Positions 6,959 to 19,059 of a DNA stretch of 64,000 nucleotides are shown here, piece after piece. How positions within the stretch are numbered: position 1 is the stretch's first letter; each line of letters starts with the position of its first letter. The translations under genes and the position numbers were made by a program. The notes under the pieces were generated by a model. The model was not told where the DNA came from and did not search any database. It saw only the letters and a program-made list of their open reading frames with translations. Location of the stretch: sequence record OR699282.2. One strand, given 5' to 3'. This stretch comes from Escherichia phage BAU.Micro_ELP-22.

Positions 6959-6965
6959 GTATTAC

Positions 6966-7027
6966 ATCAAGACGGGGAGCACTAAGTAGACCGCCAGTAA
7001 GTCGAACGAAAAACTGGACACGTCGAG
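6966..7027 (+). ncRNA. Diverged third copy of the candidate structured RNA element
   Basis: ATCAAGACGGGGAGC..AAGTAG..CAGTAAG..ACGAAAAACT resembles 3706-3780 and 14831-14903; no ORF. Confidence 0.3.
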
Positions 7028-7081
7028 AAAACTTTGATACACTAATAAACGTAAACTAAACTTTAATTGAGGATTTATAAA

Positions 7082-7564
7082 ATGGCTAATGTAAAATCAT
7101 TCATCAAAGCACTGGTAGCAAATGAAACTAACGTCGCGGCTGAGATCCTGGCTGAACTGGATAACGATACCATGAAAGCGGTACGCAATAATTTTAACAT
7201 CGCGTACAGTACTGCGAAAGAACTACAAGCAAATAAAGCGGCAGAAATTGAAGCGGCAAAGGCGGCCCGTGAAGCAGAACTACAAGCAACAATCGAAAGT
7301 ATTCAGGCGGCAGTAGTTGGATTGGATCTGGAAGTAGTTACAGAGATGGCACAAAAAGCCCTGGCGGTTAAGTATGGGGAAGACAAGCCAGAAGTAAAAG
7401 CCAAAAAATGGATTCAGGAACGCGTAGCGGTAGTACTGGACAACGGGGAAGAATATCTGATTCCGGTGCGTGGTAACTGTATTGCGGTAGTACTGGACGC
7501 GATTAACTCCAGTGGTATGACTCGCGAGGAATGGATCGAAGCTCATCGCAAAGTTGAAGCATAA
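7082..7564 (+). CDS. hypothetical protein (160 aa), Ala/Glu-rich helical N-terminus
   Basis: Track ORF 7067 trimmed to ATG 7082, SD GAGGA; followed by strong terminator. Confidence 0.7.
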   Translation: MANVKSFIKALVANETNVAAEILAELDNDTMKAVRNNFNIAYSTAKELQANKAAEIEAAKAAREAELQATIESIQAAVVGLDLEVVTEMAQKALAVKYGEDKPEVKAKKWIQERVAVVLDNGEEYLIPVRGNCIAVVLDAINSSGMTREEWIEAHRKVEA

Positions 7565-7585
7565 CAATTAAAGTACTGAATCACT

Positions 7586-7613
7586 AGCCCACCTTAAACG
7601 GTGGGCTTTTTTG
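7586..7613 (+). terminator. Rho-independent terminator
   Basis: AGCCCACC-TTAAAC-GGTGGGCT then TTTTTTG. Confidence 0.8.
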
Positions 7614-7761
7614 TGTTTATCGTTTACCAGGCCACCAGCACCGCCTAGAAACGATTCTAACGCATTAAACTGATTATCTGATGCATTGCCCTAGCTGGTG
7701 GCGTTAAGGTCGTTGTAATGCGATTGAGAGCGTTTAAAGTATTTTGCAAAAAGTAATAAAA

Positions 7762-7822
7762 AGTACTTGCACGATTAAGAGATTAGCGTATAATGTTTTA
7801 CATCGAGAGGGGGAAACGGTTC
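7762..7822 (+). promoter_or_regulatory. PeSL-like promoter cassette
   Basis: AGTACT 7762-7767, TTGCAC 7767-7772, TATAAT 7789-7794, hairpin in GAGAGGGGGAAACGGTTCTCC. Confidence 0.65.
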
Positions 7823-7849
7823 TCCTTCCAAATCAAAGGAATCAAAACA

Positions 7850-8077
7850 ATGGCTATTATCATTACTCGCGTATCTGGTACTACTGGCAACGAACAAGTA
7901 GTTGCAGTCATTACCAACAAGGAAGGTGCGGAATTGCAAAATGCAATGAATACCTGGGCCGTTAATGAGTTCGGTCAGTGGGCAAGTGTAGCATACATTG
8001 AAACCTATCAAGTGCCGTCGATTAGTTTAACTGATTTGGGCGTTGAGCGTATCCTTTGCCTGGATGAATTAAATTAA
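7850..8077 (+). CDS. hypothetical protein (75 aa)
   Basis: Track ORF 7793 (starts inside promoter) trimmed to ATG 7850; SD AAGGAA. Confidence 0.7.
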   Translation: MAIIITRVSGTTGNEQVVAVITNKEGAELQNAMNTWAVNEFGQWASVAYIETYQVPSISLTDLGVERILCLDELN

Positions 8078-8080
8078 AAA

Positions 8081-8145
8081 AGTACTTGCAAAGTAAATCG
8101 AATAAAGTATAATACATTACATCAAGGGGAGAAATGATTCTCCCC
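8081..8145 (+). promoter_or_regulatory. PeSL-like promoter cassette
   Basis: AGTACT 8081-8086, TTGCAA 8086-8091, TATAAT 8108-8113, hairpin GGGGAGAAATGATTCTCCCC 8126-8145. Confidence 0.7.
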
Positions 8146-8162
8146 ACTACAAGGAAACTAAT

Positions 8163-8306
8163 ATGAAAACTTGTCAATGTGGTCAGAAATCTATTACTGG
8201 TTTAAAGCGGGGCGTTGCTCTTTGCCAGTACCATTATAATTTACAAGTATGGGGTAAAGAATGGGCCGACCAGGTGGAAGCAGCAAAGAAAGCAAAAAGT
8301 AAGTAA
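8163..8306 (+). CDS. small Cys-containing protein (47 aa), not in ORF track
   Basis: ATG 8163 after SD AAGGAA and PeSL; MKTCQCGQ...CQYHY possible metal-binding Cys cluster; stop 8304-8306. Confidence 0.5.
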   Translation: MKTCQCGQKSITGLKRGVALCQYHYNLQVWGKEWADQVEAAKKAKSK

Positions 8307-8318
8307 AAATATTATCAC

Positions 8319-8354
8319 AGTACTATTGACATAGTTTGATAGTACTGGCATAAT
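8319..8354 (+). promoter_or_regulatory. Class-II promoter (AGTACT-TTGACA ... AGTACT-CATAAT), no stem-loop
   Basis: AGTACT 8319-8324, TTGACA 8326-8331, AGTACT 8341-8346, CATAAT 8349-8354; near-identical at 11513-11548. Confidence 0.65.
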
Positions 8355-8397
8355 AGATTTTATCAAAACGACACATATTAATTTAAGGAATACCAAA

Positions 8398-8721
8398 ATG
8401 GCTAAAACTATCATCAACACCGTTTCCCTGGCTGCAATCCGTGCAATCAATGTTGACGGTAAACGTTGGACTGATTCATATGGCAATACTTATCATTCTT
8501 GTCATGTAAGCGTTGAACTGGATAACGGTTTGAATGATCTGGCGGTTGAATCATTTACTTATGGCTATGAAGATGCATATCAACAAACGGCGTTTGATCT
8601 CTTAAAGGAATCAGTAGACGGGCTTGATACTGTTGAAACCTCCCTTACTCGTTTATGTAATGATTTGTCTATCCCGTTGCATTGTACTGTACAGAATGTT
8701 AAACGTAAAAAAGATCTTTAA
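8398..8721 (+). CDS. hypothetical protein, early paralog family C (107 aa)
   Basis: ATG 8398, SD AAGGAA; shares RWTDSxGNTYHSC and DVKRKKD with 15606..15929. Confidence 0.7.
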   Translation: MAKTIINTVSLAAIRAINVDGKRWTDSYGNTYHSCHVSVELDNGLNDLAVESFTYGYEDAYQQTAFDLLKESVDGLDTVETSLTRLCNDLSIPLHCTVQNVKRKKDL

Positions 8722-8801
8722 TTAGCTTTACTTTATGCAGATACTTTGATATAGTGTCTGCATAGGGGAAAGAAATTAAATTAACTTAAGAGGATAGTAT
8801 A

Positions 8802-9071
8802 ATGAAAAATATCAGTACTTTAATCGATGCAGGTACACATGTTCGTCGGTCTATGGTTACAACCAGTACTACAAAACAAGTAGCAAGCGGTTATCTTGTA
8901 TTTGTGCACGATGGAAAACTCCTGGAACGTTCAATCAATTTTGATGTTAAAAACAATTGCCGTTTTATTATCTTTAAGCGTGAACAATATAAAATCGATT
9001 TACCAGCGAAGCCCATAAGCGGGGCGTACAACGTGCAATCATTGTTTGAGCGTCAACCATACACCTATTAA
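8802..9071 (+). CDS. hypothetical protein (89 aa)
   Basis: ATG 8802, SD AAGAGGA; imperfect palindrome ATGCAGATA...TGTCTGCAT upstream (8736-8765). Confidence 0.65.
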   Translation: MKNISTLIDAGTHVRRSMVTTSTTKQVASGYLVFVHDGKLLERSINFDVKNNCRFIIFKREQYKIDLPAKPISGAYNVQSLFERQPYTY

Positions 9072-9122
9072 TCAAAACATCGTTAGCGGTCGATTCAGGC
9101 CGCTTATATTGGGGATTATACC

Positions 9123-9395
9123 ATGAACGTTAATCAAGTACTGAATGAGATCGAAAGCATCATTAAACCGATGAAGCGTACTGATGCTATGTTAACACCG
9201 GAAGAATGCCGCCTTTATGAGCGTTACAGCGTCGAACAAGTCCAGGCAATGGCTATGGCTACCCCAGCCGTTAAACCGCCTGAGAATGCGTTACAGGACG
9301 TTACAGGGGATTATATCATTAATCCAGTACTAGGGAAGATGGCTGCAATCACCGAAGATCAACAAGACTACTTAAGCCAGTACTTAAAAGGTTAA
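9123..9395 (+). CDS. hypothetical protein (90 aa)
   Basis: ATG 9123, SD GGGG. Confidence 0.6.
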   Translation: MNVNQVLNEIESIIKPMKRTDAMLTPEECRLYERYSVEQVQAMAMATPAVKPPENALQDVTGDYIINPVLGKMAAITEDQQDYLSQYLKG

Positions 9396-9400
9396 TTAAT

Positions 9401-9610
9401 ATGCTTACTGTACAGGATAAGATCGACATCTTAAAGGTTAATATGTATGTGATTGATGCAGTACCTGGTAAAGTATTTGCATACGATGACACTACTGTAA
9501 GCAATTTCTACTATAGCCAGGACGTGGGGGATCTTTCTGTACAGTCGGTTATTGAAAACGTAGTTAATGCAGCGTATGAGCATTTACTTTCAAATAGTAC
9601 TTGCAATTAG
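9401..9610 (+). CDS. hypothetical protein (69 aa)
   Basis: ATG 9401 tightly following previous gene; last codons overlap the -35 of the next PeSL. Confidence 0.6.
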   Translation: MLTVQDKIDILKVNMYVIDAVPGKVFAYDDTTVSNFYYSQDVGDLSVQSVIENVVNAAYEHLLSNSTCN

Positions 9611-9660
9611 TTTTTAAACGCGTATAATGTTTTACATGAAGGGGAGAAATGATTCTCCCC
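9596..9660 (+). promoter_or_regulatory. PeSL-like promoter cassette
   Basis: AGTACT 9596-9601, TTGCAA 9601-9606, TATAAT 9623-9628, hairpin GGGGAGAAATGATTCTCCCC 9641-9660. Confidence 0.7.
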
Positions 9661-9679
9661 ACTAATTAAGGAATATGAA

Positions 9680-9826
9680 ATGAAAGCATCAAAAAAGAGT
9701 AATACTAAGAAAGCACGTTCAACCTTAGATGGGGTATTCCCTTTACGTTTCGTTGATGAAGTAGTTTCCTACCCGCCGGGCCTTACTCCTGAGATGGTAG
9801 AAAGTTTGCGTAAATCTAAAAAATAG
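9680..9826 (+). CDS. small basic protein (48 aa), not in ORF track
   Basis: ATG 9680 with SD AAGGAA at 7-nt spacing, directly after PeSL; Lys/Arg-rich. Confidence 0.5.
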   Translation: MKASKKSNTKKARSTLDGVFPLRFVDEVVSYPPGLTPEMVESLRKSKK

Positions 9827-9885
9827 TACTTGCAATTAGTTTTTAGTACTGTATAATAGTTTACATGAAGGGGAAAACGTTCCCC
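9825..9885 (+). promoter_or_regulatory. PeSL-like promoter cassette
   Basis: AGTACT 9825-9830, TTGCAA 9830-9835, TATAAT 9852-9857, hairpin GGGGAAAACGTTCCCC 9870-9885. Confidence 0.7.
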
Positions 9886-9908
9886 TTACACCTAACGAGG
9901 AAAGTATA

Positions 9909-10160
9909 ATGGAAACAATTTTAATCAAAGACACTGCTACTACTGTAACTTATGATAATGATTGCATTATCCCAGGGACTGAGTACGGCGAACGTGTACC
10001 CGTTCAAGTAGAGATTGATACCACATACATCGACAAGGCTGACCAGTGTATCACTATTGTAATTGGTGAATATCGTTTTCTACCAGAAGAGATCCAAAAA
10101 TGGCAGAATATGATTGACCGTGCGAAATTAGTCGCACAAAGTTTAAAATACAAAGTTTAA
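9909..10160 (+). CDS. hypothetical protein (83 aa)
   Basis: ATG 9909, SD GAGGAAAG. Confidence 0.7.
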   Translation: METILIKDTATTVTYDNDCIIPGTEYGERVPVQVEIDTTYIDKADQCITIVIGEYRFLPEEIQKWQNMIDRAKLVAQSLKYKV

Positions 10161-10163
10161 AAT

Positions 10164-10228
10164 AATACTTGCAATTAGTTTTTAGTACTGTATAATGTTT
10201 TACATGAAGGGGAGAAATGATTCTCCCC
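10164..10228 (+). promoter_or_regulatory. PeSL-like promoter cassette
   Basis: TTGCAA 10169-10174, TATAAT 10191-10196, hairpin GGGGAGAAATGATTCTCCCC 10209-10228. Confidence 0.7.
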
Positions 10229-10246
10229 AATAACAGGAGAAACAAA

Positions 10247-10399
10247 ATGAAACAATACAACGCTCGGTTTGATGTTACTATCGGTAACGGCAAAGGTCAA
10301 TTCTCTTTCAGTACTCGCCGCAGTTATACAGAAAACTTCCTGCGTAATTGTGCACTGACCGCCGCTCAAATTAAACATTATTTTCAGGCTAAAAAATGA
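10247..10399 (+). CDS. hypothetical protein (50 aa)
   Basis: Track ORF 10217 trimmed to ATG 10247; SD AGGAGA. Confidence 0.6.
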   Translation: MKQYNARFDVTIGNGKGQFSFSTRRSYTENFLRNCALTAAQIKHYFQAKK

Positions 10400-10485
10400 G
10401 ATCATTAGCTTATTACAGTTCGGCCCTGGTCGGTGCATTGATCGCGGCGTTGTTAGTAACCTATCTATTCTTTATGGTGATTTAA
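10396..10485 (+). CDS. tiny hydrophobic peptide (29 aa), candidate membrane peptide
   Basis: ATG 10396 overlaps upstream stop (ATGA); single hydrophobic stretch SALVGALIAALLVTYLFFMVI. Confidence 0.4.
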   Translation: MRSLAYYSSALVGALIAALLVTYLFFMVI

Positions 10486-10629
10486 ATGAATCCAACAGGT
10501 TTAAACTATAAAAGTTGTTCGGCATTTACGAAAGCAAATAAAGCGAATGCACGTAAAGCGAAAGTACAGGAATACATCAAGCAAGGCATGACGCGAAAGG
10601 CGGCGATTCTAAAAGCTAAAAATAAATGA
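10486..10629 (+). CDS. small basic protein (47 aa)
   Basis: ATG 10486 directly after TAA of preceding peptide; Lys-rich; not in ORF track. Confidence 0.35.
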   Translation: MNPTGLNYKSCSAFTKANKANARKAKVQEYIKQGMTRKAAILKAKNK

Positions 10630-10638
10630 AAAAAGTGG

Positions 10639-10717
10639 TTGACTCCGGTCAGCCATTTTGCTATTATATATTCATTGAGAGATAGCTCACTAGCCCACAG
10701 GGTGCAGGAGTGTATCT
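10639..10717 (+). repeat. Repeated intergenic element, type A
   Basis: TTGACTCCGGTCAG..TATTATAT then CATTGAGAGATAGCTCACTAGCCCACAGGGTGCAGGAGTGTATCT. Confidence 0.6.
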
Positions 10718-10766
10718 ATTGTATAATGTTTGAGTACTGAAAACTATTTTAAAGTATTTGATAAAA

Positions 10767-10830
10767 AGTACTTGCAAACTATCTCAATAAGCGTATAATG
10801 TTTTACATCGCAAGGGGAAACGGTTTCCCC
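10767..10830 (+). promoter_or_regulatory. PeSL-like promoter cassette
   Basis: AGTACT 10767-10772, TTGCAA 10772-10777, TATAAT 10794-10799, hairpin GGGGAAACGGTTTCCCC 10814-10830. Confidence 0.7.
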
Positions 10831-10850
10831 TAGTAATAAGGAAACGAATC

Positions 10851-11192
10851 ATGACTATCTCAATTGCTCAATCTAACTTTGAAAATGAAATCATCGCCCA
10901 GGCACTGCGTTTAAATGATGGTCGGGCCGAAATCAATTACGGTTTCAATTCAGGCGGTTGTGAAAAATATCAGTACTTTGTAACGGCTGATGGCGGTGTC
11001 CTGGGTATCAATACAGTTATTGTAAACATCCAAAAAATTAATTTCAATGATCCAGACGATAGCCAGTTTTACATCACTGGCGTAGACGTGAACTATGAGG
11101 ATGACTCACTAACTGATGATCACACTGGTGAGCGGTTAGAAAGTGCATACGGTGAAGATGATTATCAGTCCGGTCCAGAAGATTTCGAATAA
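10851..11192 (+). CDS. acidic hypothetical protein (113 aa) with D/E-rich C-terminal tail
   Basis: ATG 10851; C-terminal third strongly acidic (DDSLTDDHTGERLESAYGEDDYQSGPEDFE). Confidence 0.7.
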   Translation: MTISIAQSNFENEIIAQALRLNDGRAEINYGFNSGGCEKYQYFVTADGGVLGINTVIVNIQKINFNDPDDSQFYITGVDVNYEDDSLTDDHTGERLESAYGEDDYQSGPEDFE

Positions 11193-11206
11193 TATAAAAA
11201 AATAGT

Positions 11207-11265
11207 TTGACAATAGATTATAGTACTGTATAATAGTTTACATCAAGGGGAGAATAGTTCTCCCC
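11207..11265 (+). promoter_or_regulatory. PeSL-like promoter cassette
   Basis: TTGACA 11207-11212, TATAAT 11229-11234, hairpin GGGGAGAATAGTTCTCCCC 11247-11265. Confidence 0.7.
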
Positions 11266-11287
11266 ACTAACAGAGAGAGAAAACAAA

Positions 11288-11500
11288 ATGGCTAATATCC
11301 GGTCGAAATTAAAAAATGCAAAACAAGTTTTATTTTCAGATCATGAATACTTTAATAAAGATATTACAGGAGTTACAAGTATCAAGGAAGTAAAAGAAAA
11401 AACCGGCGTTTTGTGTGATGTGCGATTAGTTGGAACATTTGGGAATAACGTGCTATATCGCTGCGGTGATTACAATTTTACACTGACTATCATTAACTAA
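11288..11500 (+). CDS. hypothetical protein (70 aa)
   Basis: ATG 11288, SD-like GAGAGAGA. Confidence 0.65.
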   Translation: MANIRSKLKNAKQVLFSDHEYFNKDITGVTSIKEVKEKTGVLCDVRLVGTFGNNVLYRCGDYNFTLTIIN

Positions 11501-11512
11501 AAATATTATCAC

Positions 11513-11548
11513 AGTACTATTGACATAGTTTGATAGTACTGACATAAT
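11513..11548 (+). promoter_or_regulatory. Class-II promoter
   Basis: AGTACT 11513-11518, TTGACA 11520-11525, AGTACT 11535-11540, CATAAT 11543-11548. Confidence 0.65.
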
Positions 11549-11582
11549 AACTTTTATCAACTACACTACTAAGGAATTAAAA

Positions 11583-11762
11583 ATGGCTATCATCGCAAAA
11601 ACTGAAATCATCGGCCTGGATTCTATCATCATGACGTTTGAAGATCAAAAAGGTATGTATGTGGTTTCCTATGGTGATTATGTTCGGGAGTATGAAACGG
11701 TAGACGAAGCCTTTGAAAGTTACATTCGCCAGGTGAATAAAGCATACGACGACTACCGCTAA
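11583..11762 (+). CDS. hypothetical protein (59 aa), not in ORF track
   Basis: ATG 11583 with SD AAGGAA; downstream of class-II promoter. Confidence 0.55.
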   Translation: MAIIAKTEIIGLDSIIMTFEDQKGMYVVSYGDYVREYETVDEAFESYIRQVNKAYDDYR

Positions 11763-11773
11763 AATATATTACC

Positions 11774-11817
11774 AGTACTATTAAATCTATTGACAATGTT
11801 TGATAGTACTGTATAAT
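11774..11817 (+). promoter_or_regulatory. Class-II promoter
   Basis: AGTACT upstream, TTGACA 11790-11795, TATAAT 11812-11817. Confidence 0.6.
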
Positions 11818-11861
11818 AAGTTTTATCAACAGTAGTTAACTTAACCTAAGAGAGAAACAAA

Positions 11862-12005
11862 ATGATCGCACTGGATTCATTCATCGACGCAGTACTGGCA
11901 AAAACTGGCGAGGATCTGACCGCAGAACAATACGCAATGATCGAGCAATGCCAGCAAGACGGTAAATCGGTGAAAGATACTGTTAAGATTATCCGCAAGA
12001 TGTAA
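11862..12005 (+). CDS. hypothetical protein (47 aa), not in ORF track
   Basis: ATG 11862 with SD AAGAGAGA; followed by stem-loop 12012-12037. Confidence 0.5.
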   Translation: MIALDSFIDAVLAKTGEDLTAEQYAMIEQCQQDGKSVKDTVKIIRKM

Positions 12006-12011
12006 GATTAT

Positions 12012-12040
12012 AGCCCACTGGTTAACGCTGGTGGGCTTTA
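12012..12040 (+). terminator. Stem-loop, possible terminator (weak U-run)
   Basis: AGCCCAC..GTGGGCT then TTTAATTC. Confidence 0.45.
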
Positions 12041-12110
12041 ATTCATTACCCTATACAATGCCAGTACTAAACCGTTTATCTCGTTAGAATGCGTTACAGG
12101 ACGTTTAACA

Positions 12111-12308
12111 ATGATTAGCATGAAATCAGTACAAAAACAAATAGAAACATTATCAAAAATTAAACGTAAACAGTACTCCTTAGAATATACAATCAATGGT
12201 AACTATCATCTAATGAAAGAAAATAATTTTATAGTCATTGATGAATCATTGCAAATCATTAGTATAGTACTGAAAGCATTAATCAATGACAGAAAAAAAT
12301 TAAAATAA
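12111..12308 (+). CDS. hypothetical protein (65 aa)
   Basis: ATG 12111; weak SD; AT-rich. Confidence 0.4.
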   Translation: MISMKSVQKQIETLSKIKRKQYSLEYTINGNYHLMKENNFIVIDESLQIISIVLKALINDRKKLK

Positions 12309-12312
12309 ACTA

Positions 12313-12388
12313 TTGACAATATCATCCAGTACTGGCATAATACTTACATCAAGACGAGAACGTCACTAACCCATAGGGTGCACAAATG
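12313..12388 (+). repeat. Repeated intergenic element (B-type sequence, plus orientation)
   Basis: TTGACA 12313-12318, CATAAT 12336-12341, then ACATCAAGACGAGAACGTCACTAACCCATAGGGTGCACA. Confidence 0.55.
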
Positions 12389-12403
12389 TAACTGTATAAT
12401 ATT

Positions 12404-12434
12404 GATCAAAAAATGATCTGATCAATACTTGATC
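12404..12434. promoter_or_regulatory. Cluster of four GATC sites (TGATCA repeats)
   Basis: GATC at 12404, 12415, 12420, 12431 within 31 bp, directly downstream of TATAAT 12395-12400. Confidence 0.4.
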
Positions 12435-12639
12435 AATTTGCGTAAAGTAGTATAATTCTATGCAGTTGGTTAGACGAAAGGTTATGATTAGTAGTGCAAG
12501 TGTATAAAAATTTTCATGGTGTATCGTTCCGCACATATGGGGATGAATATGTGGTATCATGTGGATTGGAAAAAGTAAGAACAAGTAATATTATTGTCGC
12601 ATTACAGTACTATAGTATTTTTATAATGAGGTTAAAATA

Positions 12640-12897
12640 ATGGCTGTAGGATTCGCGAAAGATGGGGCCGAACAAGACGAGATTAACGCAGTGATTCAGG
12701 CTGCCGTTAACCACGCTAGAAAGCAAATTAACGCACAAATAGAATCACTGATACATTGCCTCGACTGCGGCGATATAATCCCTGAGAAACGACGCCAGGC
12801 CGTTAAGGGATGTAAGTACTGCATAACTTGCCAGGAGGATCATGATAGTACTTTTAAACGTCCCCCGCGTAATTGTTGGCATAGATCTATGAGATAA
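12640..12897 (+). CDS. TraR/DksA-family C4 zinc-finger protein (85 aa)
   Basis: C-x2-C...C-x2-C (CLDCGDIIPEKRRQAVKGCKYCITC) C-terminal zinc-finger arrangement typical of TraR/DksA; SD GAGG. Confidence 0.7.
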   Translation: MAVGFAKDGAEQDEINAVIQAAVNHARKQINAQIESLIHCLDCGDIIPEKRRQAVKGCKYCITCQEDHDSTFKRPPRNCWHRSMR

Positions 12898-12904
12898 AAA
12901 GTAA

Positions 12905-12932
12905 TTGACAGTACTGAAAGATAGTGTATAAT
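12905..12932 (+). promoter_or_regulatory. sigma70-like promoter
   Basis: TTGACA 12905-12910, 16-bp spacer with CAGTACTG, TATAAT 12927-12932. Confidence 0.65.
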
Positions 12933-12961
12933 GTTTTATATCTTAACTGAGGATAGTAATC

Positions 12962-13318
12962 ATGGGAATACAACATATCACGCGTACTACTGACAATGGC
13001 GAGATCACTGGCTATCAAGTACAGGGCAAAGTAGCACAATTGCAGTACTGGTTTGTTAAACGTGGAATCATTGCACCGGATCTTGATTATGACCGTGTAG
13101 CGTTTATTGATTCTCTTTATGTTGATCCTGATAGTCGGGGCAATGGTGAAGGTAACGAATTAATGAATGCCTTTATCGATGCCGCCGATGATTCAGATTG
13201 TATCATCTTAGAATGCGATACGGGAGAAGATAACGCCTTTAATCTTAAAGAATGGTACGAAGGTTTCGGATTCGAGGTATTGATAGATAGTGAATATCCT
13301 ATCATGATTTTATCATAG
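12962..13318 (+). CDS. GNAT-family N-acetyltransferase (118 aa)
   Basis: IDSLYVDPDSRGNGEGNELMNAFIDAA matches the GNAT acetyl-CoA binding motif (V-x-P-x-x-R-G-x-G); SD GAGGA. Confidence 0.65.
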   Translation: MGIQHITRTTDNGEITGYQVQGKVAQLQYWFVKRGIIAPDLDYDRVAFIDSLYVDPDSRGNGEGNELMNAFIDAADDSDCIILECDTGEDNAFNLKEWYEGFGFEVLIDSEYPIMILS

Positions 13319-13378
13319 TACTTGCATTTAGTTTTCAGTACTGTTATAGTACTTGCATCAAGGGGAAACATCTTCCCC
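13317..13378 (+). promoter_or_regulatory. PeSL-like promoter cassette
   Basis: AGTACT 13317-13322, TTGCAT 13322-13327, TATAGT 13345-13350, hairpin GGGGAA-ACAT-CTTCCCC 13363-13378. Confidence 0.6.
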
Positions 13379-13396
13379 TACTAAGAGGAAATAAAA

Positions 13397-13585
13397 ATGG
13401 AAAACTTATCAAGTATTTTAGTACAAGATGATTTCGGTAATCCTGGAAGTGCTATCATTGTTCGGGGTAATAAAGCAACATTTGTTATTGCTGGTGGACC
13501 TGTACAGCGTAGCATTAAAAACAATGCCGTTACTATTAATAATGTACGCTATCGCTTAGATAAAGAATTGATTCATAAACTGTAA
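13397..13585 (+). CDS. hypothetical protein (62 aa)
   Basis: ATG 13397, SD AAGAGGAA. Confidence 0.65.
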   Translation: MENLSSILVQDDFGNPGSAIIVRGNKATFVIAGGPVQRSIKNNAVTINNVRYRLDKELIHKL

Positions 13586-13612
13586 TATTAATTTAATAGA
13601 GGATAACAATAA

Positions 13613-13936
13613 ATGTACATTCATACTACTATCACAAAGGAAGTCCGTTGCCAGTTCGAAAGTATTCCGGGCGTATGTTTCATCACTGGTACGTTTTCCC
13701 CTGGTGATCGTGATAATCCAGTACTGTTACAATTACGCCATCCATCATGGGATAAAGCATTTGATCTACCGTTGAATGAATTCGCAACTACTGCTGAAAA
13801 GTACATTAAAAATATTCGCGAGAATGATCGACTATTCATTAATGCTTTTAGTGATTCCGCGTTAAGCGAGATCCACGGCGTATTGGTTGCAATCATGGAA
13901 TCAATGCAGAAAACTAAATTCAAACAAGGTGAATAA
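13613..13936 (+). CDS. hypothetical protein (107 aa)
   Basis: ATG 13613, SD AGAGGA; no own promoter, likely co-transcribed. Confidence 0.65.
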   Translation: MYIHTTITKEVRCQFESIPGVCFITGTFSPGDRDNPVLLQLRHPSWDKAFDLPLNEFATTAEKYIKNIRENDRLFINAFSDSALSEIHGVLVAIMESMQKTKFKQGE

Positions 13937-13942
13937 AAACTA

Positions 13943-14002
13943 TTGACAATGCAATCCAGTACTGTATAATAAGTTACATGAAGGGGAGAAATGATTCTCC
14001 CC
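13943..14002 (+). promoter_or_regulatory. PeSL-like promoter cassette
   Basis: TTGACA 13943-13948, TATAAT 13965-13970, hairpin GGGGAGAAATGATTCTCCCC 13983-14002. Confidence 0.7.
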
Positions 14003-14019
14003 ACTGAGAGGAAAGAAAA

Positions 14020-14232
14020 ATGCAAGGTCAACTAATCGTTCGTAAATGGTCTGATACTAACGAAAAACCGTGGGATGTACAATACATCGGACCGGATGGG
14101 GTATCACGTTATCAGCCTGGCGTAACGCATAGTACTGAGCAATATGCCGCCGCTCACCGCGAACGCCTGTTAGAATCCATGAAACAGGGATACGGTGAAA
14201 AATTCATTCAAGATCATTGGCTGAAAGATTAA
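14020..14232 (+). CDS. hypothetical protein (70 aa)
   Basis: ATG 14020, SD GAGAGGAAAG. Confidence 0.7.
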   Translation: MQGQLIVRKWSDTNEKPWDVQYIGPDGVSRYQPGVTHSTEQYAAAHRERLLESMKQGYGEKFIQDHWLKD

Positions 14233-14249
14233 TAGAAGGAGTACAGCTT

Positions 14250-14342
14250 ATGCAAATGAATCCGATGATTATTGTTTTAGCTGTACTTATGATCATTCAT
14301 GCAATTGTAGAAGTATTAACGCAATCAGGAGTAATAAAATGA
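14250..14342 (+). CDS. tiny hydrophobic peptide (30 aa), candidate membrane peptide
   Basis: ATG 14250 with strong SD AAGGAG at 7 nt; MQMNPMIIVLAVLMIIHAIVEVL hydrophobic; not in ORF track. Confidence 0.5.
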   Translation: MQMNPMIIVLAVLMIIHAIVEVLTQSGVIK

Positions 14343-14512
14343 TTCAAGTAGAATTATCAGTACTGAAAGATCTGTTTTATCGGTTAGGTACTACTGGAGA
14401 GTATCCTAAAAGTGATACCGCAAAACTTTTTGTATCACTCGACTTATGGCAACGCGAACAATTAGTAATGTCCTGGCGTAAAGGTAAAGCAGATAGCGAG
14501 GTGAAAGCATGA
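14339..14512 (+). CDS. hypothetical protein (57 aa)
   Basis: ATG 14339 overlaps upstream stop (ATGA); not in ORF track. Confidence 0.45.
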   Translation: MIQVELSVLKDLFYRLGTTGEYPKSDTAKLFVSLDLWQREQLVMSWRKGKADSEVKA

Positions 14513-14658
14513 AAGAATTCTTATTCGAAGTAGTGTTTCAAGGTGTCGGTAGTAACCAACTGATTCGCTCAAGTGGTTACAATGTTAACCAGGCATGGAA
14601 TAACATTAAACAAATGTACCCGAACGCTATCACCTATCGCAACCCGAAAGAAGTTTAA
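14509..14658 (+). CDS. hypothetical protein (49 aa)
   Basis: ATG 14509 overlaps upstream stop (ATGA); third member of a coupled mini-operon. Confidence 0.45.
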   Translation: MKEFLFEVVFQGVGSNQLIRSSGYNVNQAWNNIKQMYPNAITYRNPKEV

Positions 14659-14686
14659 AAATAATTGAAAAAGGGATTGACTCCGG

Positions 14687-14750
14687 TCAGTCCCTTTGCT
14701 ATTATATACGCATAGAAACAAATCAGCCCACAGGGTGCATAAATGTATCT
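14687..14750 (+). repeat. Repeated intergenic element, type A
   Basis: TTGACTCCGGTCAGTCCCTTTGCTATTATAT then CGCATAGAAACAAATCAGCCCACAGGGTGCATAAATGTATCT. Confidence 0.6.
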
Positions 14751-14790
14751 ATTGTTAGCTGGTGGCTAGTACTGAAAACTATTTTTAAAA

Positions 14791-14823
14791 AGTACTTGCA
14801 TTGTACTTAGAATCAAGTATAAT
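14791..14823 (+). promoter_or_regulatory. PeSL-type promoter driving non-coding element
   Basis: AGTACT 14791-14796, TTGCAT 14796-14801, TATAAT 14818-14823. Confidence 0.65.
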
Positions 14824-14830
14824 GTTTTAC

Positions 14831-14903
14831 ATCAGGACGGGGAACGAAACAAGTAACCCCGTTAAGTAGTCCAGGAGTAAGACATACGAAAACCTCCCCT
14901 GAT
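14831..14903 (+). ncRNA. Candidate small structured RNA (second copy)
   Basis: ATCAGGACGGGGAACGAAACAAGTAACCCCGTTAAGTAGTCCAGGAGTAAGACATACGAAAACCTCCCCTGAT; same layout as 3706-3780. Confidence 0.4.
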
Positions 14904-14911
14904 AAAAAAGA

Positions 14912-14940
14912 TTGACAATAGTTTGAAGTACTGATAAAAT
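14912..14940 (+). promoter_or_regulatory. sigma70-like promoter
   Basis: TTGACA 14912-14917, 17-bp spacer with AGTACT, TAAAAT 14935-14940. Confidence 0.5.
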
Positions 14941-14972
14941 AATCACATCAACTACTGATAAGGAAACATAAA

Positions 14973-15248
14973 ATGCGGATTCTACTGACAGCTAACGAAA
15001 TCGAACAAGTACTGACTACTAACCTGGAAGACTGGAAACGTGAAGCAGATATCCAGGCGGTTCAATGGCTTAACGATAAGTTAACGCCGGATGACTTAAG
15101 CAAGATTGTAGATCCTCAATTCTACGAAGATATTCACGACACCGCGTTAAGCGTCGAGGATGTACTAGATAAGCACTACATTGATACTGATTTGCAGGTT
15201 TACGGTCGTAAAAACTTTATCACTATTCACGATATTTACAATAATTAA
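14973..15248 (+). CDS. hypothetical protein (91 aa)
   Basis: ATG 14973, SD AAGGAA. Confidence 0.7.
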   Translation: MRILLTANEIEQVLTTNLEDWKREADIQAVQWLNDKLTPDDLSKIVDPQFYEDIHDTALSVEDVLDKHYIDTDLQVYGRKNFITIHDIYNN

Positions 15249-15249
15249 G

Positions 15250-15310
15250 TATTGACAAAGTATCTTAGTACTGTATAATAGTTTACATCGAGAGGGGGAA
15301 TGGTTCCCCT
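15250..15310 (+). promoter_or_regulatory. PeSL-like promoter cassette (identical 44-bp promoter, copy 1 of 3)
   Basis: TTGACA 15252-15257, TATAAT 15274-15279, hairpin GGGGGAATGGTTCCCC; same promoter at 15519 and 18096. Confidence 0.7.
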
Positions 15311-15334
15311 CCTAACTAAAAGAGAGAAATAAAA

Positions 15335-15517
15335 ATGGCTAAGTGCACTATCTGTAATAAAGAAATAGTATTAGTTCCAAGTGCCCGTGAACGTGCCGCT
15401 CGGTTCGGTGGCAAAGCGTCAGACTATACAAAAATGTTTACTGCCCATACAGCTTGCCAGGTAGCAAAACGTTCACAAGAAAGCGTAGAATTAATGCGTA
15501 AACTTTCCAAAAAATAA
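15335..15517 (+). CDS. small Cys-containing protein (60 aa)
   Basis: ATG 15335; CTICNKE ... HTACQ possible zinc-ribbon; SD-like AGAGAGA. Confidence 0.65.
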   Translation: MAKCTICNKEIVLVPSARERAARFGGKASDYTKMFTAHTACQVAKRSQESVELMRKLSKK

Positions 15518-15518
15518 G

Positions 15519-15582
15519 TATTGACAAAGTATCTTAGTACTGTATAATAGTTTACATCAAGTGAGGGGAAACGGTTCCCCTC
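15519..15582 (+). promoter_or_regulatory. PeSL-like promoter cassette (copy 2 of 3)
   Basis: TTGACA 15521-15526, TATAAT 15543-15548, hairpin GAGGGGAAACGGTTCCCCTC 15564-15582. Confidence 0.7.
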
Positions 15583-15605
15583 CTAACAAAGAGAGAGAAA
15601 TAAAA

Positions 15606-15929
15606 ATGGCTATGATCCTTACCCAGAAAGTGGAACTGAAAATTGTAACCTCCTTTGACATTAACGTTAATCGGTGGACTGATTCACACGGCAATACTTA
15701 CCACTCTTGCTACGTGTCTGCTTTAATTGGCGACCGCTGGGAAGACCTGGGACACGAAACCTTTACATACGGTTACGGTACACAAGGCGAATACACGGGC
15801 TTGGAGATCATTAAAGAAACCGTTATAGGTTTCAACCCGAAAGAAAAAGTTATTCACCGCATCGAGGAAGAGATCAACAAAGAAATAACAGTTCGCTACC
15901 ACGATGTAAAACGTAAGAAAGACATGTAA
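15606..15929 (+). CDS. hypothetical protein, early paralog family C (107 aa)
   Basis: Track ORF 15561 trimmed to ATG 15606; paralog of 8398..8721. Confidence 0.7.
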   Translation: MAMILTQKVELKIVTSFDINVNRWTDSHGNTYHSCYVSALIGDRWEDLGHETFTYGYGTQGEYTGLEIIKETVIGFNPKEKVIHRIEEEINKEITVRYHDVKRKKDM

Positions 15930-15943
15930 TAGAATCCATTTAA

Positions 15944-15980
15944 AGTACTATTTGACATTGCCCAGATAGTACTTTATAAT
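15944..15980 (+). promoter_or_regulatory. Class-II promoter
   Basis: AGTACT 15944-15949, TTGACA 15952-15957, 17-bp spacer with AGTACT, TATAAT 15975-15980. Confidence 0.65.
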
Positions 15981-16024
15981 AGACTCTAACTTGTAGTACT
16001 AACTTAACTAATAGGATGTATACC

Positions 16025-16420
16025 ATGATTACTAAATTCTACGCTACCCGTGAAGCTGCCCGTATTGTTGCACGCGAGGAAGGCGAAACATTTAAAGACA
16101 TGGGCAAAGATGCACCGAAAGGTCAACGCTGGGCCGTACAGTTCAAAGAGATCTCTGATATTGTGAATTCACCGGAGCCAGTACTAACAGCAGCAGAACT
16201 AAAACGAGCGGATTTACTGGCGTCAATACTTGATGCACAAGATGAGTTTATCGCTGATTCTGATATCAAAGTACAGACAAACCATACCGCATGGACTCAC
16301 GCGGATCACCTGGCAAACCTTAAGCGTCCAAGTGAACTGATTCGCAACCAGAAAGAGATCCGACACGACCGTAAGGGTAATCGTGTAACAGTATACAGTA
16401 AACGCCGCCAGGTTATCTAA
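16025..16420 (+). CDS. hypothetical protein, early paralog family B (131 aa)
   Basis: ATG 16025 (SD AGGA at 8 nt; alternative ATG 16016); paralog of 2837..3103. Confidence 0.65.
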   Translation: MITKFYATREAARIVAREEGETFKDMGKDAPKGQRWAVQFKEISDIVNSPEPVLTAAELKRADLLASILDAQDEFIADSDIKVQTNHTAWTHADHLANLKRPSELIRNQKEIRHDRKGNRVTVYSKRRQVI

Positions 16421-16441
16421 TAACTTGCAGTACTAACAACA

Positions 16442-16468
16442 CGGCGGGATCAGTTCCCGCCTTTTTTA
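16442..16468 (+). terminator. Rho-independent terminator
   Basis: GGCGGGA-TCAG-TTCCCGCC then TTTTTTA. Confidence 0.75.
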
Positions 16469-16481
16469 TAGGACAAACAAA

Positions 16482-16736
16482 ATGATTAAGGTTCAACTAT
16501 ATAAAGATAACATCTTACGGGTACACTATAAAGCACCACAGAGAATCATCACAAAGGCCGTACAGCTTGCTAATGAGTTTATTAATGGTAACCTATTACC
16601 TAGGAAGTTAAGCAACGGGAAACTGCGTGTAATCGACGTGGACACTAACAACAGGATAGTAATCGAGAACACAGGAAAGATAAACCTTTATGAGCATCAA
16701 CAATACAATAAGAAAATAAAACTAATATCACGTTGA
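16482..16736 (+). CDS. hypothetical protein (84 aa)
   Basis: ATG 16482; SD weak. Confidence 0.6.
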   Translation: MIKVQLYKDNILRVHYKAPQRIITKAVQLANEFINGNLLPRKLSNGKLRVIDVDTNNRIVIENTGKINLYEHQQYNKKIKLISR

Positions 16737-16790
16737 CAGTACTCAAATGTTTTAGTACTATATGTACATACCAACACGGGGAGAAACAAA

Positions 16791-17033
16791 ATGATTACTT
16801 TAGAAAAACGTATCAAAGAAACTACATCGCTGGTGGAACTGTTAACAGTACTCAAATGTAAAACTACTCGGTTTAGTACACCGGACTTTATTAATATGGT
16901 TGATGTTAACGGTCGTTATCGTATTGCAGTAGAACAAGGCACGGCAAAAGTATTCAGTACTAAAAACACTAAGGAAGTGATTCACGCGGTTAGTGTGAAA
17001 AAAGTGGTTGCCATTGATAGTAAAGTACTGTAA
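16791..17033 (+). CDS. hypothetical protein (80 aa)
   Basis: ATG 16791, SD GGGGAG. Confidence 0.65.
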   Translation: MITLEKRIKETTSLVELLTVLKCKTTRFSTPDFINMVDVNGRYRIAVEQGTAKVFSTKNTKEVIHAVSVKKVVAIDSKVL

Positions 17034-17064
17034 GATAGTTTCATTAACTCAAGGAGAACATGCA

Positions 17065-17649
17065 ATGCGTAATTATACTAAATTCATCCGTACCCTGTCA
17101 GAAATGGAAACCAACAAAGAGATCCTTTCAGCTTGTCGGTTAGCTGGCCTGGAGATCATCGGTGCTGGTTCTTCCCGTATAGTTTTCGCTTTAAATGATC
17201 GGTTAGTGATTAAGGTCGCGAATTGTGATGCGGGTGTAGAACAAAATGAAACTGAATGTAAGGTATGGAATTTTTTAGACTATGACCGCCCTCAGTTGAA
17301 ACAGTACTTTGCAAAGGTGCATATGCATTTATGCGATCCTGATAATATGTTTATCGTTATGGATCGGTTGAGTACTGCAAGCAAAGGCAGTGTGAAGCAC
17401 GTAAACGCGTGCAATGAATTAAAGTACAATATTAAACGTAATGCAATCGAACGCCAGCACCGCTTTGCTGATGCACTACAACACGTTGATGATACATTAT
17501 CAACACTAACGATAAGAGATATCAGAAAACAGAATATCGGCCAGGATCGTAATGGACTTATTAAAGTACTTGATTACGGTTTAACCAGCAATATCTGGAA
17601 TCAGTACTATAAAAAGCGTGATGTGGCAGCAAGTAAGGTAACACGATAA
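17065..17649 (+). CDS. minimal Ser/Thr protein kinase-like protein (194 aa)
   Basis: Track ORF 17008 trimmed to ATG 17065 (SD AAGGAG, 8 nt); Gly-rich loop GAGSSRIVF, Lys in VIKVAN, catalytic-loop-like RDIRKQNIG, DFG-like LDYG. Confidence 0.65.
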   Translation: MRNYTKFIRTLSEMETNKEILSACRLAGLEIIGAGSSRIVFALNDRLVIKVANCDAGVEQNETECKVWNFLDYDRPQLKQYFAKVHMHLCDPDNMFIVMDRLSTASKGSVKHVNACNELKYNIKRNAIERQHRFADALQHVDDTLSTLTIRDIRKQNIGQDRNGLIKVLDYGLTSNIWNQYYKKRDVAASKVTR

Positions 17650-17667
17650 AAAAGATTAAAAAAGGGA

Positions 17668-17746
17668 TTGACTCCGGTCAGTCCCTTTGCTATTATATAT
17701 CCATTGAGAGATAACTCACTGACCCATAGGGTGCGGAAGTGTATCT
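17668..17746 (+). repeat. Repeated intergenic element, type A
   Basis: TTGACTCCGGTCAGTCCCTTTGCTATTATAT then CATTGAGAGATAACTCACTGACCCATAGGGTGCGGAAGTGTATCT. Confidence 0.6.
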
Positions 17747-17785
17747 ATTATATAAGTATTCAGTACTGAAAACTATTTGATAAAA

Positions 17786-17850
17786 AGTACTTGCATTGTA
17801 CTTAGAATCAAGTATAATGTTTTATATCGAGAGGGGGAAATGGTTCTCCC
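17786..17850 (+). promoter_or_regulatory. PeSL-like promoter cassette
   Basis: AGTACT 17786-17791, TTGCAT 17791-17796, TATAAT 17813-17818, hairpin GGGGGAAATGGTTCTCCC 17833-17850. Confidence 0.7.
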
Positions 17851-17872
17851 TGGTATATTAAGGAATAAAATC

Positions 17873-18094
17873 ATGACTACAATGACTTGCATTTACGCTT
17901 CCAATCTTCTGAATGATGCGGCCTTTAATGTTGATTCAGAATATCAATGTTATCGGGATGAAAATAAAAAAGTTTTTGTAGTTGATAATAATGGTTTCCA
18001 TATTGAATTGCAATCCGGTTTCACTGGTGTTGATGGTAAATCAGTATGGGGCGTACAGGATGATAAAGGCACATATCATTTTAAACGTAATTAA
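17873..18094 (+). CDS. hypothetical protein (73 aa)
   Basis: Track ORF 17777 trimmed to ATG 17873; SD AAGGAA. Confidence 0.7.
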   Translation: MTTMTCIYASNLLNDAAFNVDSEYQCYRDENKKVFVVDNNGFHIELQSGFTGVDGKSVWGVQDDKGTYHFKRN

Positions 18095-18095
18095 G

Positions 18096-18156
18096 TATTG
18101 ACAAAGTATCTTAGTACTGTATAATAGTTTACATCAAGGGGAGAATAGTTCTCCCC
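18096..18156 (+). promoter_or_regulatory. PeSL-like promoter cassette (copy 3 of identical promoter)
   Basis: TTGACA 18098-18103, TATAAT 18120-18125, hairpin GGGGAGAATAGTTCTCCCC 18138-18156. Confidence 0.7.
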
Positions 18157-18180
18157 ACACCAATAAAAGGAAACATAATT

Positions 18181-18453
18181 ATGTCTAGCTACTCCGCTAC
18201 TATGATCATTAAAGATATGAACGGTAATCCTACTTCTGCTGGTGGATCATTTGGAAACATTAATTTAGATGGTCGGTTATCCATGCAATCAGCAATCGAT
18301 GCAGCGAAAGAAGTTTTTAAGAATGAATGTACTGTTAGTAAGCTGGATTATATGGGATTTGCTATCGAAAAAACTAATCGTTTTGTGAACTACAAAAAAC
18401 CATTGATGATTGATACTAACCTGAAAGCTAACGAAGTGGAGTACTTATTATGA
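18181..18453 (+). CDS. hypothetical protein (90 aa)
   Basis: ATG 18181, SD AAAGGAAA. Confidence 0.7.
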   Translation: MSSYSATMIIKDMNGNPTSAGGSFGNINLDGRLSMQSAIDAAKEVFKNECTVSKLDYMGFAIEKTNRFVNYKKPLMIDTNLKANEVEYLL

Positions 18454-18641
18454 CAGTTGAAGAAGTTAAAAAAGTACTGGCAGTACTACGCTATCATAAT
18501 CATTGCAAGGTGAAGAATGATCCTGATTATCTCGATTCATCCCTGGAAGAGGATACACTACAAGCAATAAGCCATATGCAAACATTAGCAAAGCGTATGA
18601 CTGAAAAGAACATGCCGGACTATATCGGAAATAAAATTTAA
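18450..18641 (+). CDS. hypothetical protein (63 aa)
   Basis: ATG 18450 overlaps upstream stop (ATGA). Confidence 0.6.
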   Translation: MTVEEVKKVLAVLRYHNHCKVKNDPDYLDSSLEEDTLQAISHMQTLAKRMTEKNMPDYIGNKI

Positions 18642-18643
18642 AA

Positions 18644-18710
18644 AGTACTTGCATTGTAGTTAGATTAACGTATAATGTTTTATATCGAGAGGGGGAAATG
18701 GTTTCCCCTC
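18644..18710 (+). promoter_or_regulatory. PeSL-like promoter cassette
   Basis: AGTACT 18644-18649, TTGCAT 18649-18654, TATAAT 18671-18676, hairpin GAGGGGGAAATGGTTTCCCCTC 18687-18710. Confidence 0.7.
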
Positions 18711-18728
18711 AAGTCCAGGAGATACACC

Positions 18729-19041: not shown

Positions 19042-19059
19042 ACTAAAAGGAGTAATAAA

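Follow-up and report, generated by a model that had tools for sequence, protein, structure and literature searches.

A predicted YbiI-like zinc-finger protein and a predicted mini-GNAT encoded by neighbouring genes of an Asteriusvirus-like jumbo phage

Two adjacent genes of Escherichia phage BAU.Micro_ELP-22 code for members of the TraR/DksA and GNAT families and are independent neighbours that form no functional pair. We analyzed 64,000 nucleotides of the phage record OR699282.2 (the window). With moderate confidence we read the two as separate early accessory genes, one for a predicted polymerase-binding YbiI-like protein and the other for a predicted protein-acetylating mini-GNAT. Both open reading frames lie on the + strand exactly where a sequence-only reading of this DNA had placed them, and the check it proposed, profile searches for the DksA/TraR and GNAT families, returned significant matches to both, with scores well above what chance would give. 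Both genes belong to known kinds and are ordinary examples of them. Several public records of near-identical phages already annotate them, the first as 'DksA-like zinc-finger protein' or 'C-4 type zinc finger protein' and the second as 'acetyltransferase'; we found no paper connecting Asteriusvirus phages to DksA/TraR proteins. Mildly interesting are the tip of the YbiI-like branch, which is not of the DxxDxA type, and a mini-GNAT family common to large multidomain phage proteins. The features discussed are the following.

12429..12456, + strand: sigma-70-like promoter, TTGATC-16-TATAAT, 10 of 12 consensus positions (consensus scan, a pattern match only), 5' of the small ORF and the zinc-finger gene
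12494..12640, + strand: small putative ORF, 48 aa from a GTG start, gp293 in 121Q and gp253 in PBECO4
12640..12897, + strand: TraR/DksA-family C4 zinc-finger protein, 85 aa, YbiI-like phage branch (PF01258, phrog_54, 2KGO, AlphaFold)
12640..12675, + strand: its N-terminal tip, MAVGFAKDGAEQ, standing where TraR has DxxDxA
12757..12831, + strand: its zinc-binding module C40-x2-C43...C61-x2-C64, with I47-P-E-x-R51-R52 (read from the sequence)
12905..12932, + strand: sigma-70 promoter serving the GNAT gene, TTGACA-16-TATAAT, a perfect consensus at 12 of 12 positions (consensus scan)
12962..13318, + strand: minimal GNAT acetyltransferase, 118 aa, without the beta1-alpha1-alpha2 arm (Pfam, AlphaFold, Foldseek)
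13136..13153, + strand: its motif A, R59-G-N-G62-E-G64, the acetyl-CoA pyrophosphate-binding loop (read from the sequence)
17008..17649, + strand: truncated protein-kinase-like ORF, probable ATG at 17065 (sub-threshold Pkinase match, motifs, phrog_4301 of unknown function)

Two neighbours in a promoter-per-gene array

By DNA identity the window is assigned to Asteriusvirus, the PBECO4/121Q-like jumbo coliphages. Genomes of this genus (PBECO4, 121Q, JP4, vB_EcoM_E9.1 and others; 43 records) are 98% identical to 3 kb around both genes. All but two of the ORFs of at least 130 aa in the window are on the + strand, and no tRNA genes were found across it. The two genes sit in an array of small genes, mostly with near-consensus sigma-70 promoters of their own. 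Some 19 such promoters (TTGACA-16/17-TATAAT) are found on the + strand from about 366 to 20,100, roughly one for each small gene, and over the whole window the + strand has 31 near-consensus promoters vs 7 on the - strand. In vB_Ec-M-J, a 'Direct Terminal Repeats' feature at 1-21,525 takes in both genes, at coordinates almost the same as in the window. Since near-consensus sigma-70 promoters on the + strand surround the genes within a direct terminal repeat, the proposed placement of both among the early genes seems reasonable.

Each gene begins at the most upstream start available to its ORF (12640 and 12962). The ATG of the zinc-finger gene shares one base with the stop codon of the 48-aa ORF (TAATG), and the promoter at 12429..12456 precedes the two. 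The GNAT gene has its own perfect-consensus promoter with an AT-rich discriminator, GTTTTATA. Compared with phage 121Q, the zinc-finger gene has a dN/dS of 0.10 and the GNAT gene one of 0.05; both are under purifying selection and are therefore expressed, selected genes. The small upstream ORF has a dN/dS of 0.24 in the same comparison.

The sequence-only reading had also taken the two genes, together with a kinase, as a cluster of host-physiology modifiers, a view that the distribution of the genes does not bear out. The zinc-finger protein is encoded at a minimum of 80% identity in 33 phage records and the GNAT of the window in 24, with 23 of these at 80% identity or more. About 10 of the 33 close relatives keep the zinc-finger gene and lack the GNAT. 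The zinc-finger gene of PBECO4 is 99.6% identical and the entire GNAT cassette is missing there, the deletion joining promoter sequence to promoter sequence; the promoter at 12905..12932 is the left edge of this indel. Salmonella phage SD-1_S14 encodes a zinc-finger protein that is 100% identical and is not among the records holding the GNAT, the SD phages being without it. DNA comparison with Ecwhy_1 gives 99.7-100% identity for the GNAT gene together with the intergenic regions on either side, 90.7% for the zinc-finger gene and 74% for the upstream ORF. Relative to JP4, the GNAT flanks are 98.6-100% identical and the zinc-finger gene 93%. These values point to different recombination histories for the two genes. 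The gene at 13613-13936 is missing from 121Q, and the region is thus a gene-by-gene mosaic.

Beyond the close relatives, T4-type phages carry the zinc-finger gene without a GNAT of the window's type, and Klebsiella phage 05F01 (Stephanstirmvirinae) codes for a 122-aa GNAT, 47% identical, that has no zinc-finger neighbour. No conserved co-occurrence of a TraR-like gene and a GNAT was found across lineages; a detectable relative of the zinc-finger protein is encoded in 974 records of the phage collection, vs 24 for the GNAT.

We consider it very unlikely that zinc-finger protein, GNAT and kinase-like protein make up a co-selected module that jointly reprograms host physiology; in such a module the GNAT might, for example, acetylate RNA polymerase with the TraR-like protein seated in the channel of the enzyme. 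Every examined Asteriusvirus record that bears the GNAT has the two genes side by side. No terminator-like site was found between them, so read-through from the zinc-finger gene is possible. A phage GNAT acting on RNA polymerase also has a precedent in Rac (PMC7552054). Set against these points are the relatives with one gene and not the other, the promoter sequence at the indel edges, the discordant identities in Ecwhy_1, a kinship of GNAT and Rac that does not go beyond the superfamily level, and a kinase-like ORF 3.7 kb downstream of the two genes and about 10 genes away. Judged by gene distribution, the module is largely refuted. A single operon of both genes was rejected as well, given the separate consensus promoter of the GNAT and its independent history. 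The adjacency of these independent neighbours is best explained by the insertion of one cassette into an array of about 20 shuffled small genes with independent promoters.

The kinase meant in the earlier reading is most likely the ORF at 17008..17649, a plausible truncated kinase. Its match to Pkinase (E 0.0049, 16.7 bits) is below the cut-off of 31.7, and it has the motifs GAGSSRIVF (G-loop), VIKV (VxK), RDIRKQN (RDxKxxN) and DYG. Its best PDB sequence matches are without exception protein kinases, and the alignments fall at the catalytic loop and DFG. The ORF is outside any unit with the zinc-finger and GNAT genes.

A zinc-finger protein of the YbiI-like branch

The C-x2-C...C-x2-C zinc finger of the TraR/DksA family that had been read in 12640..12897 was confirmed by PF01258 (zf-dskA_traR; 41.2 bits, E 1.6e-10, gathering cut-off 24.9) and by phrog_54, 'DksA-like zinc-finger protein' (E 1.1e-18). 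Seventeen residues part the two Cys pairs (CxxC-x17-CxxC). The closest solved relative is E. coli YbiI (2KGO; E 2e-12, residues 1-74), while the TraR structure matches at E 1e-5 in an alignment that starts only at residue 18. The YbiI equivalog NF008243 is the best NCBIfam model, covering residues 1-72 only at 81.4 bits, below its cut-off of 96. TIGR02419 (C4_traR_proteo; 52.5, cut-off 59.7) and the TraR equivalog NF010268 (30.1, cut-off 108) also score below their cut-offs. These matches suggest that the protein belongs with the YbiI-like branch and not with TraR proper. With YbiI it shares an MA-G-[FW]-A-x-D-x-A N-terminal motif, the Zn site and IPxxRR. The C-terminus differs, the bacterial tail being GYNRRGSKDSQLR where the phage protein has a distinct, conserved basic tail, FKRxPRNCWHRSMR. 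YbiI itself has no established function.

Homologues with 62-75% identity are encoded by T4-type phages such as Citrobacter phage Moon, Yersinia phages and Escherichia phage vB_EcoM_RZ, and are 84-87 aa long except for one variant of 145 aa. A second tier at 49-62% identity consists of bacterial YbiI-like proteins of 88 aa. In the Dhakavirus phage dhabil the homologous gene is in the tk/rI/mobD early accessory region and, as in the window, a small gene upstream ends right at the ATG.

Work from the Gourse laboratory defines TraR by an N-terminal helix with DxxDxA, a globular C4 Zn domain with R48 and R49, and a C-terminal helix contacting beta Si1 (PMC9239242). R48 contacts the rim helices and R49 beta-prime Si3, and the DxxDxA tip motif is described as critical to TraR/DksA function (PMC9239242). 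All five TraR homologues tested bound RNA polymerase, among them P2 Orf82, in which DxxDxA is imperfect and activity lower (PMC9239242).

We aligned the 85-aa protein with TraR and with lambda Orf73 and P2 Orf82 as translated from the lambda and P2 records. The TraR sequence in this alignment comes in part from the structure search. C40, C43, I47, R51, R52, C61, C64 and Q65 are invariant in alignments including all three. R51 and R52 are the equivalents of TraR R48 and R49 and are invariant among 58 homologues. D3 and D6 are present in TraR, lambda Orf73 and P2 Orf82, whereas DxxDxA is absent from the tip of the zinc-finger protein, with only a D-x-A remnant (D8-G-A10). The tip, MAVGFAKDGAEQ, is the same in the eight phage homologues inspected save for F5, which is Y in Ecwhy_1 and JP4, and bacterial YbiI-like proteins have nearly the same tip, MAGGFAKDGAVQ. 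Ahead of the first Cys there are 39 residues vs 36 in TraR.

An AlphaFold model built from a 58-sequence alignment is only moderately confident (pLDDT 73). Residues 1-7 are disordered in it and are followed by a helix (8-32), the Zn domain, a helix (62-71) and the disordered basic tail. Foldseek aligned this model with RNA-polymerase-bound TraR (6N57_M) over 67 columns (TM 0.58/0.66, rmsd 3.2 Å). As predicted, then, the fold is TraR-like overall, with the Zn site and the Arg-Arg pair kept. The C-terminal helix is predicted to be short and is followed by Pro75-Pro76 and the basic tail, which TraR does not have.

Like F-plasmid TraR, lambda Orf73 and P2 Orf82, the protein is of similar size, has the C4 zinc finger, the Arg-Arg pair and the architecture of N helix, globular Zn domain and C helix, and is phage-encoded among early genes. 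Unlike them, it lacks DxxDxA, has an N-terminal segment three residues longer with another conserved tip and a shorter C helix before its tail, falls under the TIGR02419 and TraR equivalog cut-offs, and comes from a lytic jumbo phage and not from a temperate phage or plasmid.

These differences also fit a protein of the YbiI type with no TraR-like regulation of transcription, which we consider possible, though on the unlikely side. It could be a passive plug of the secondary channel excluding DksA and the Gre factors, like Rnk, or have a role unrelated to RNA polymerase. DxxDxA is absent, some C4 zinc-finger homologues of intermediate length do not act like DksA, and some known homologues without DxxDxA are inactive. 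The basic tail is distinct and conserved, and Blankschien et al. considered the nearest relative, YbiI, likelier to have a role in iron metabolism (PMC2613031). On the other side, the Arg-Arg pair, the Zn domain and the TraR-like fold are kept, and the near-invariance of the tip across phage and bacterial clades argues for a functional tip. Moreover, YbiI overexpressed at a high level was reported, as data not shown, to rescue the auxotrophy of a dksA deletion, not that of relA spoT (Blankschien et al.; PMC2613031).

[quoted passage not shown] It is plausible for the YbiI-like branch and the best-supported mechanism for the zinc-finger protein; its closest relative is nevertheless YbiI, and DxxDxA is absent. 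We infer RNA polymerase binding and promoter selectivity along the following lines. The zinc-finger protein most likely binds the host enzyme in the manner of TraR: its long N-terminal helix would reach into the secondary channel, and the Zn domain, which bears the conserved Arg-Arg pair, would rest against the rim helices of beta-prime and Si3. Promoters whose open complexes are short-lived, such as those for rRNA and ribosomal proteins, would be disfavoured, and polymerase would thereby be freed for the consensus early promoters of the phage with their AT-rich discriminators. Since the chemistry of the tip is unlike that of TraR, the strength or exact effect of the protein may differ. rrnB P1 and other promoters that DksA/TraR inhibit combine a GC-rich discriminator with a short-lived open complex. 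The discriminators of the phage promoters are AT-rich, typically AGTTTACA (mean GC 0.30), so these promoters would be expected to escape inhibition by a TraR-like factor.

A mini-GNAT shared with large phage proteins

The acetyl-CoA motif read earlier in 12962..13318, R59-G-N-G62-E-G64, is accompanied by matches above the cut-offs of three Pfam models: PF00583 (E 4.1e-9, 37.2 bits, cut-off 20.7), PF13508 (E 5.8e-8, 33.5 bits, cut-off 27) and PF13673 (E 7.9e-6). A PDB sequence search gave only marginal matches (best E 7e-4), and a word-indexed homologue search returned only the protein's own cluster and a broken 80-aa copy in phage CMSTMSU. Exhaustive searching with HMMER brought up 290 representatives (E<=1e-3). 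Of these, many are 117-150 aa and align end-to-end with the query; in others the domain is part of a larger protein, the longest having 2,284 aa. Singly, members of the family match generic GNAT models only. In an alignment of 30 members G62, G64, W98 and Y99 are invariant and G17-Y18, R59, D86-x2-E89 (the 'DTGE' stretch), F93, P113 and M115 nearly so; R59, G62 and G64 are all invariant in a 19-member alignment.

The AlphaFold model (pLDDT 86, pTM 0.80) has two N-terminal strands and a short helix followed by beta4-alpha3-beta5-alpha4-beta6-beta7, and the canonical beta1-alpha1-alpha2 arm is missing from it. Twenty-six PDB structures of GNATs match the model at E<=1e-3 by Foldseek, the best being the protein N-alpha-acetyltransferases Naa60, Naa50, Ard1 and RimI.

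That truncation and decay of a longer acetyltransferase produced the protein is extremely improbable. The broken version in CMSTMSU would fit decay, as would the Pfam GNAT profile, of which only the C-terminal half is matched (positions 53-116 of 116). Upstream extension of the ORF is impossible, however, and the dN/dS of 0.05, the dozens of homologues of 117-150 aa aligned over their full length, the compact and confident model and the many viral GNATs of 104-127 aa all tell against it. We rejected a pseudogene on the lack of upstream extension, the family alignment, the model and dN/dS, and take the 118-aa protein to be a complete, selected predicted mini-GNAT.

By modelled structure its nearest small solved analogue is AcrVA5 (6IUF), a 92-aa GNAT anti-CRISPR that gave the top target-normalised Foldseek score (TMt 0.73). 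Both are minimal GNATs encoded by mobile elements and lack the N-terminal arm. They differ in that identity is 16% and a match at the sequence level is absent. AcrVA5 acetylates Cas12a, which E. coli hosts of the phage studied here are not known to carry.

Some of the large proteins fuse the mini-GNAT domain to other domains, PARP/ART and ParB_N in one and Amidoligase_2 or DUF5661 in others. Iyer et al. described a GNAT family that adjoins ART domains in phage 'polyvalent proteins', predicted it to modify proteins and also mentioned solo versions (PMC5512222). The polyvalent-protein GNATs and the homologues of the window GNAT resemble each other in these neighbouring domains, and the PARP/ART fusion fits that family, a likely identity drawn from architecture only. 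At four family members from metagenomic contigs no conserved partner was found; the contexts are phage-like arrays with mostly unannotated small ORFs as neighbours. One member is flanked by RtcB and a CCA-adding enzyme, a context that hints at tRNA.

[quoted passage not shown] Rac-like roles have been predicted for jumbo-phage GNATs in a review of these phages. At 157 aa Rac is a full-length GNAT, unlike the 118-aa protein of the window, and we rejected a specific kinship between the two, as hhalign gave a probability of 4% over 33 columns covering motif A only.

We infer protein acetylation and the kind of target from fold and family. The mini-GNAT most likely acetylates a host protein from acetyl-CoA, for takeover or counter-defence, and the missing alpha1-alpha2 arm would leave its acceptor site open, as in AcrVA5. 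A doubtful alternative, though one to be taken seriously, is an acceptor that is not a protein, either a small molecule (an antibiotic, polyamine or nucleotide signal) or an aminoacyl-tRNA, as for the TacT/AtaT toxins. Weak NCBIfam similarities that include antibiotic-resistance acetyltransferases are consistent with this, as are the member next to RtcB and the CCA-adding enzyme and the presence of the GNAT toxin structure 7BYY among the fold matches. The top structural matches, in contrast, are protein N-terminal acetyltransferases and AcrVA5, and fusion to PARP/ART agrees with a GNAT family for which protein modification is predicted. Absence of the alpha1-alpha2 arm also takes away the usual wall of a small-molecule pocket, which may favour proteins.

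Implications for phage control of the host

A bolder reading, which we think unlikely, is that the YbiI-like proteins are a distinct class of secondary-channel effector and, separately, that the mini-GNAT acts as an AcrVA5-like anti-defence enzyme that acetylates a new target. The YbiI-like tip, MA-G-[FW]-A-K-D-G-A-x-Q, near-invariant, partly non-helical and three residues longer than that of TraR, would then engage the active-site region otherwise than the DxxDxA factors do. If so, lytic T4-type and jumbo phages would control polymerase differently, for example by blocking access of DksA/ppGpp or the Gre factors, with no mimicry.

The overall importance of the finding is modest. In arrays with one promoter per gene, adjacency implies no functional link, a lesson for annotation. 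The mini-GNAT family recurs as an uncharacterised domain in phage conflict proteins, and its target would extend a short list of phage acetyltransferase effectors. TraR-type factors give phages and plasmids a documented, ppGpp-independent way of reprogramming the host RNA polymerase. The ones tested to date are from temperate phages and plasmids and have DxxDxA or a close variant, whereas the YbiI-like branch, with its different conserved tip, occurs widely among lytic T4-type and jumbo phages. Study of this branch would be an inexpensive and informative way to learn which TraR features are truly needed, and might reveal the role of YbiI in E. coli.

Mosaic structure and the probable terminal repeat

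Across 11500-14500, the window was compared with four close relatives (L011, L012, L001, and L003), and the relationship is a mosaic, gene by gene, with identity shifting abruptly, within the range 74% to 100%, where one gene gives way to the next. Gene content also varies. PBECO4 is without the cassette containing the GNAT acetyltransferase, and 121Q is missing the gene at 13613-13936. In vB_Ec-M-J, a repeat_region spanning 1-21525 is annotated 'Direct Terminal Repeats', and by comparison window positions 1 to ~21500 are probably the long direct terminal repeat of this phage. The GNAT is present twice in the longer records (366-384 kb).

Features of the window
10632-10667, hairpin with a 12-bp stem, TTGACT -35 hexamer inside, then a TATTAT -10 (AAAGGGATTGACTCCGGTCAGTCCCTTT GCTATTAT)
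12494-12640, + strand, 48-aa ORF with a GTG/TTG start, its stop overlapping the zinc-finger ATG
13613-13936, + strand, 107-aa protein matching DUF7247 (PF23905; E 1.5e-7)
14670-14705, hairpin with a 12-bp stem, TTGACT -35 hexamer inside, then a TATTAT -10 (AAAGGGATTGACTCCGGTCAGTCCCTTT GCTATTAT)
17008-17649, + strand, truncated protein-kinase-like ORF (G-loop GAGSSRIVF, VIKV, RDIRKQN, DYG)

Promoters, hairpins, and other ORFs

About 19 near-consensus σ70 promoters (TTGACA-16/17-TATAAT) are arrayed on the + strand at 366-20100, approximately one per small ORF, and an AT-rich discriminator, AGTTTACA, recurs among them. Over the whole window, near-consensus σ70 promoters number 31 on the + strand versus 7 on the - strand. 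In T4-type phages, promoter-early-stem-loop cassettes are said to drive modular shuffling. The two hairpins, at 10632-10667 and 14670-14705, presumably resemble such cassettes.

The kinase-like ORF stops ~35 residues past its DFG-like motif. Its Pfam Pkinase score is sub-threshold and it belongs to phrog_4301, a family of unknown function. Farther along the + strand, at 29000-56500, there is a long back-to-back run of ORFs of ~140-200 aa in which overlaps of a few bases are common; these ORFs look like paralogues laid out in an array.

The zinc-finger tail and the ORF upstream

The TraR/DksA-family zinc-finger protein ends in F(K/T)RxxRNCWHR(S/T)MR (residues 71-85, window 12850-12897), a tail nearly invariant among the phage zinc-finger homologues inspected. 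The tail hits a PHROG of its own, phrog_25948 (E 4e-11), and in the T4-type phage PNJ-6 an isolated tblastn match covers only residues 60-85 of the protein. The 48-aa ORF upstream shares its 16 C-terminal residues exactly with its 121Q counterpart, and the remainder has diverged; dN/dS for the ORF is 0.24. An equivalent abutting layout, involving a different small gene, occurs in the T4-type phage dhabil.

Surroundings of a mini-GNAT relative

A member of the mini-GNAT family, to which the acetyltransferase belongs, is carried on L006, a 97 kb contig (Logan SRR12416833). There, within 384-7827, a CCA-adding enzyme (PolyA_pol) is encoded immediately downstream of the family member, and an RtcB RNA ligase lies ~4 kb further upstream of it. 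The proximity of these two enzymes suggests a tRNA-repair neighbourhood for this mini-GNAT.
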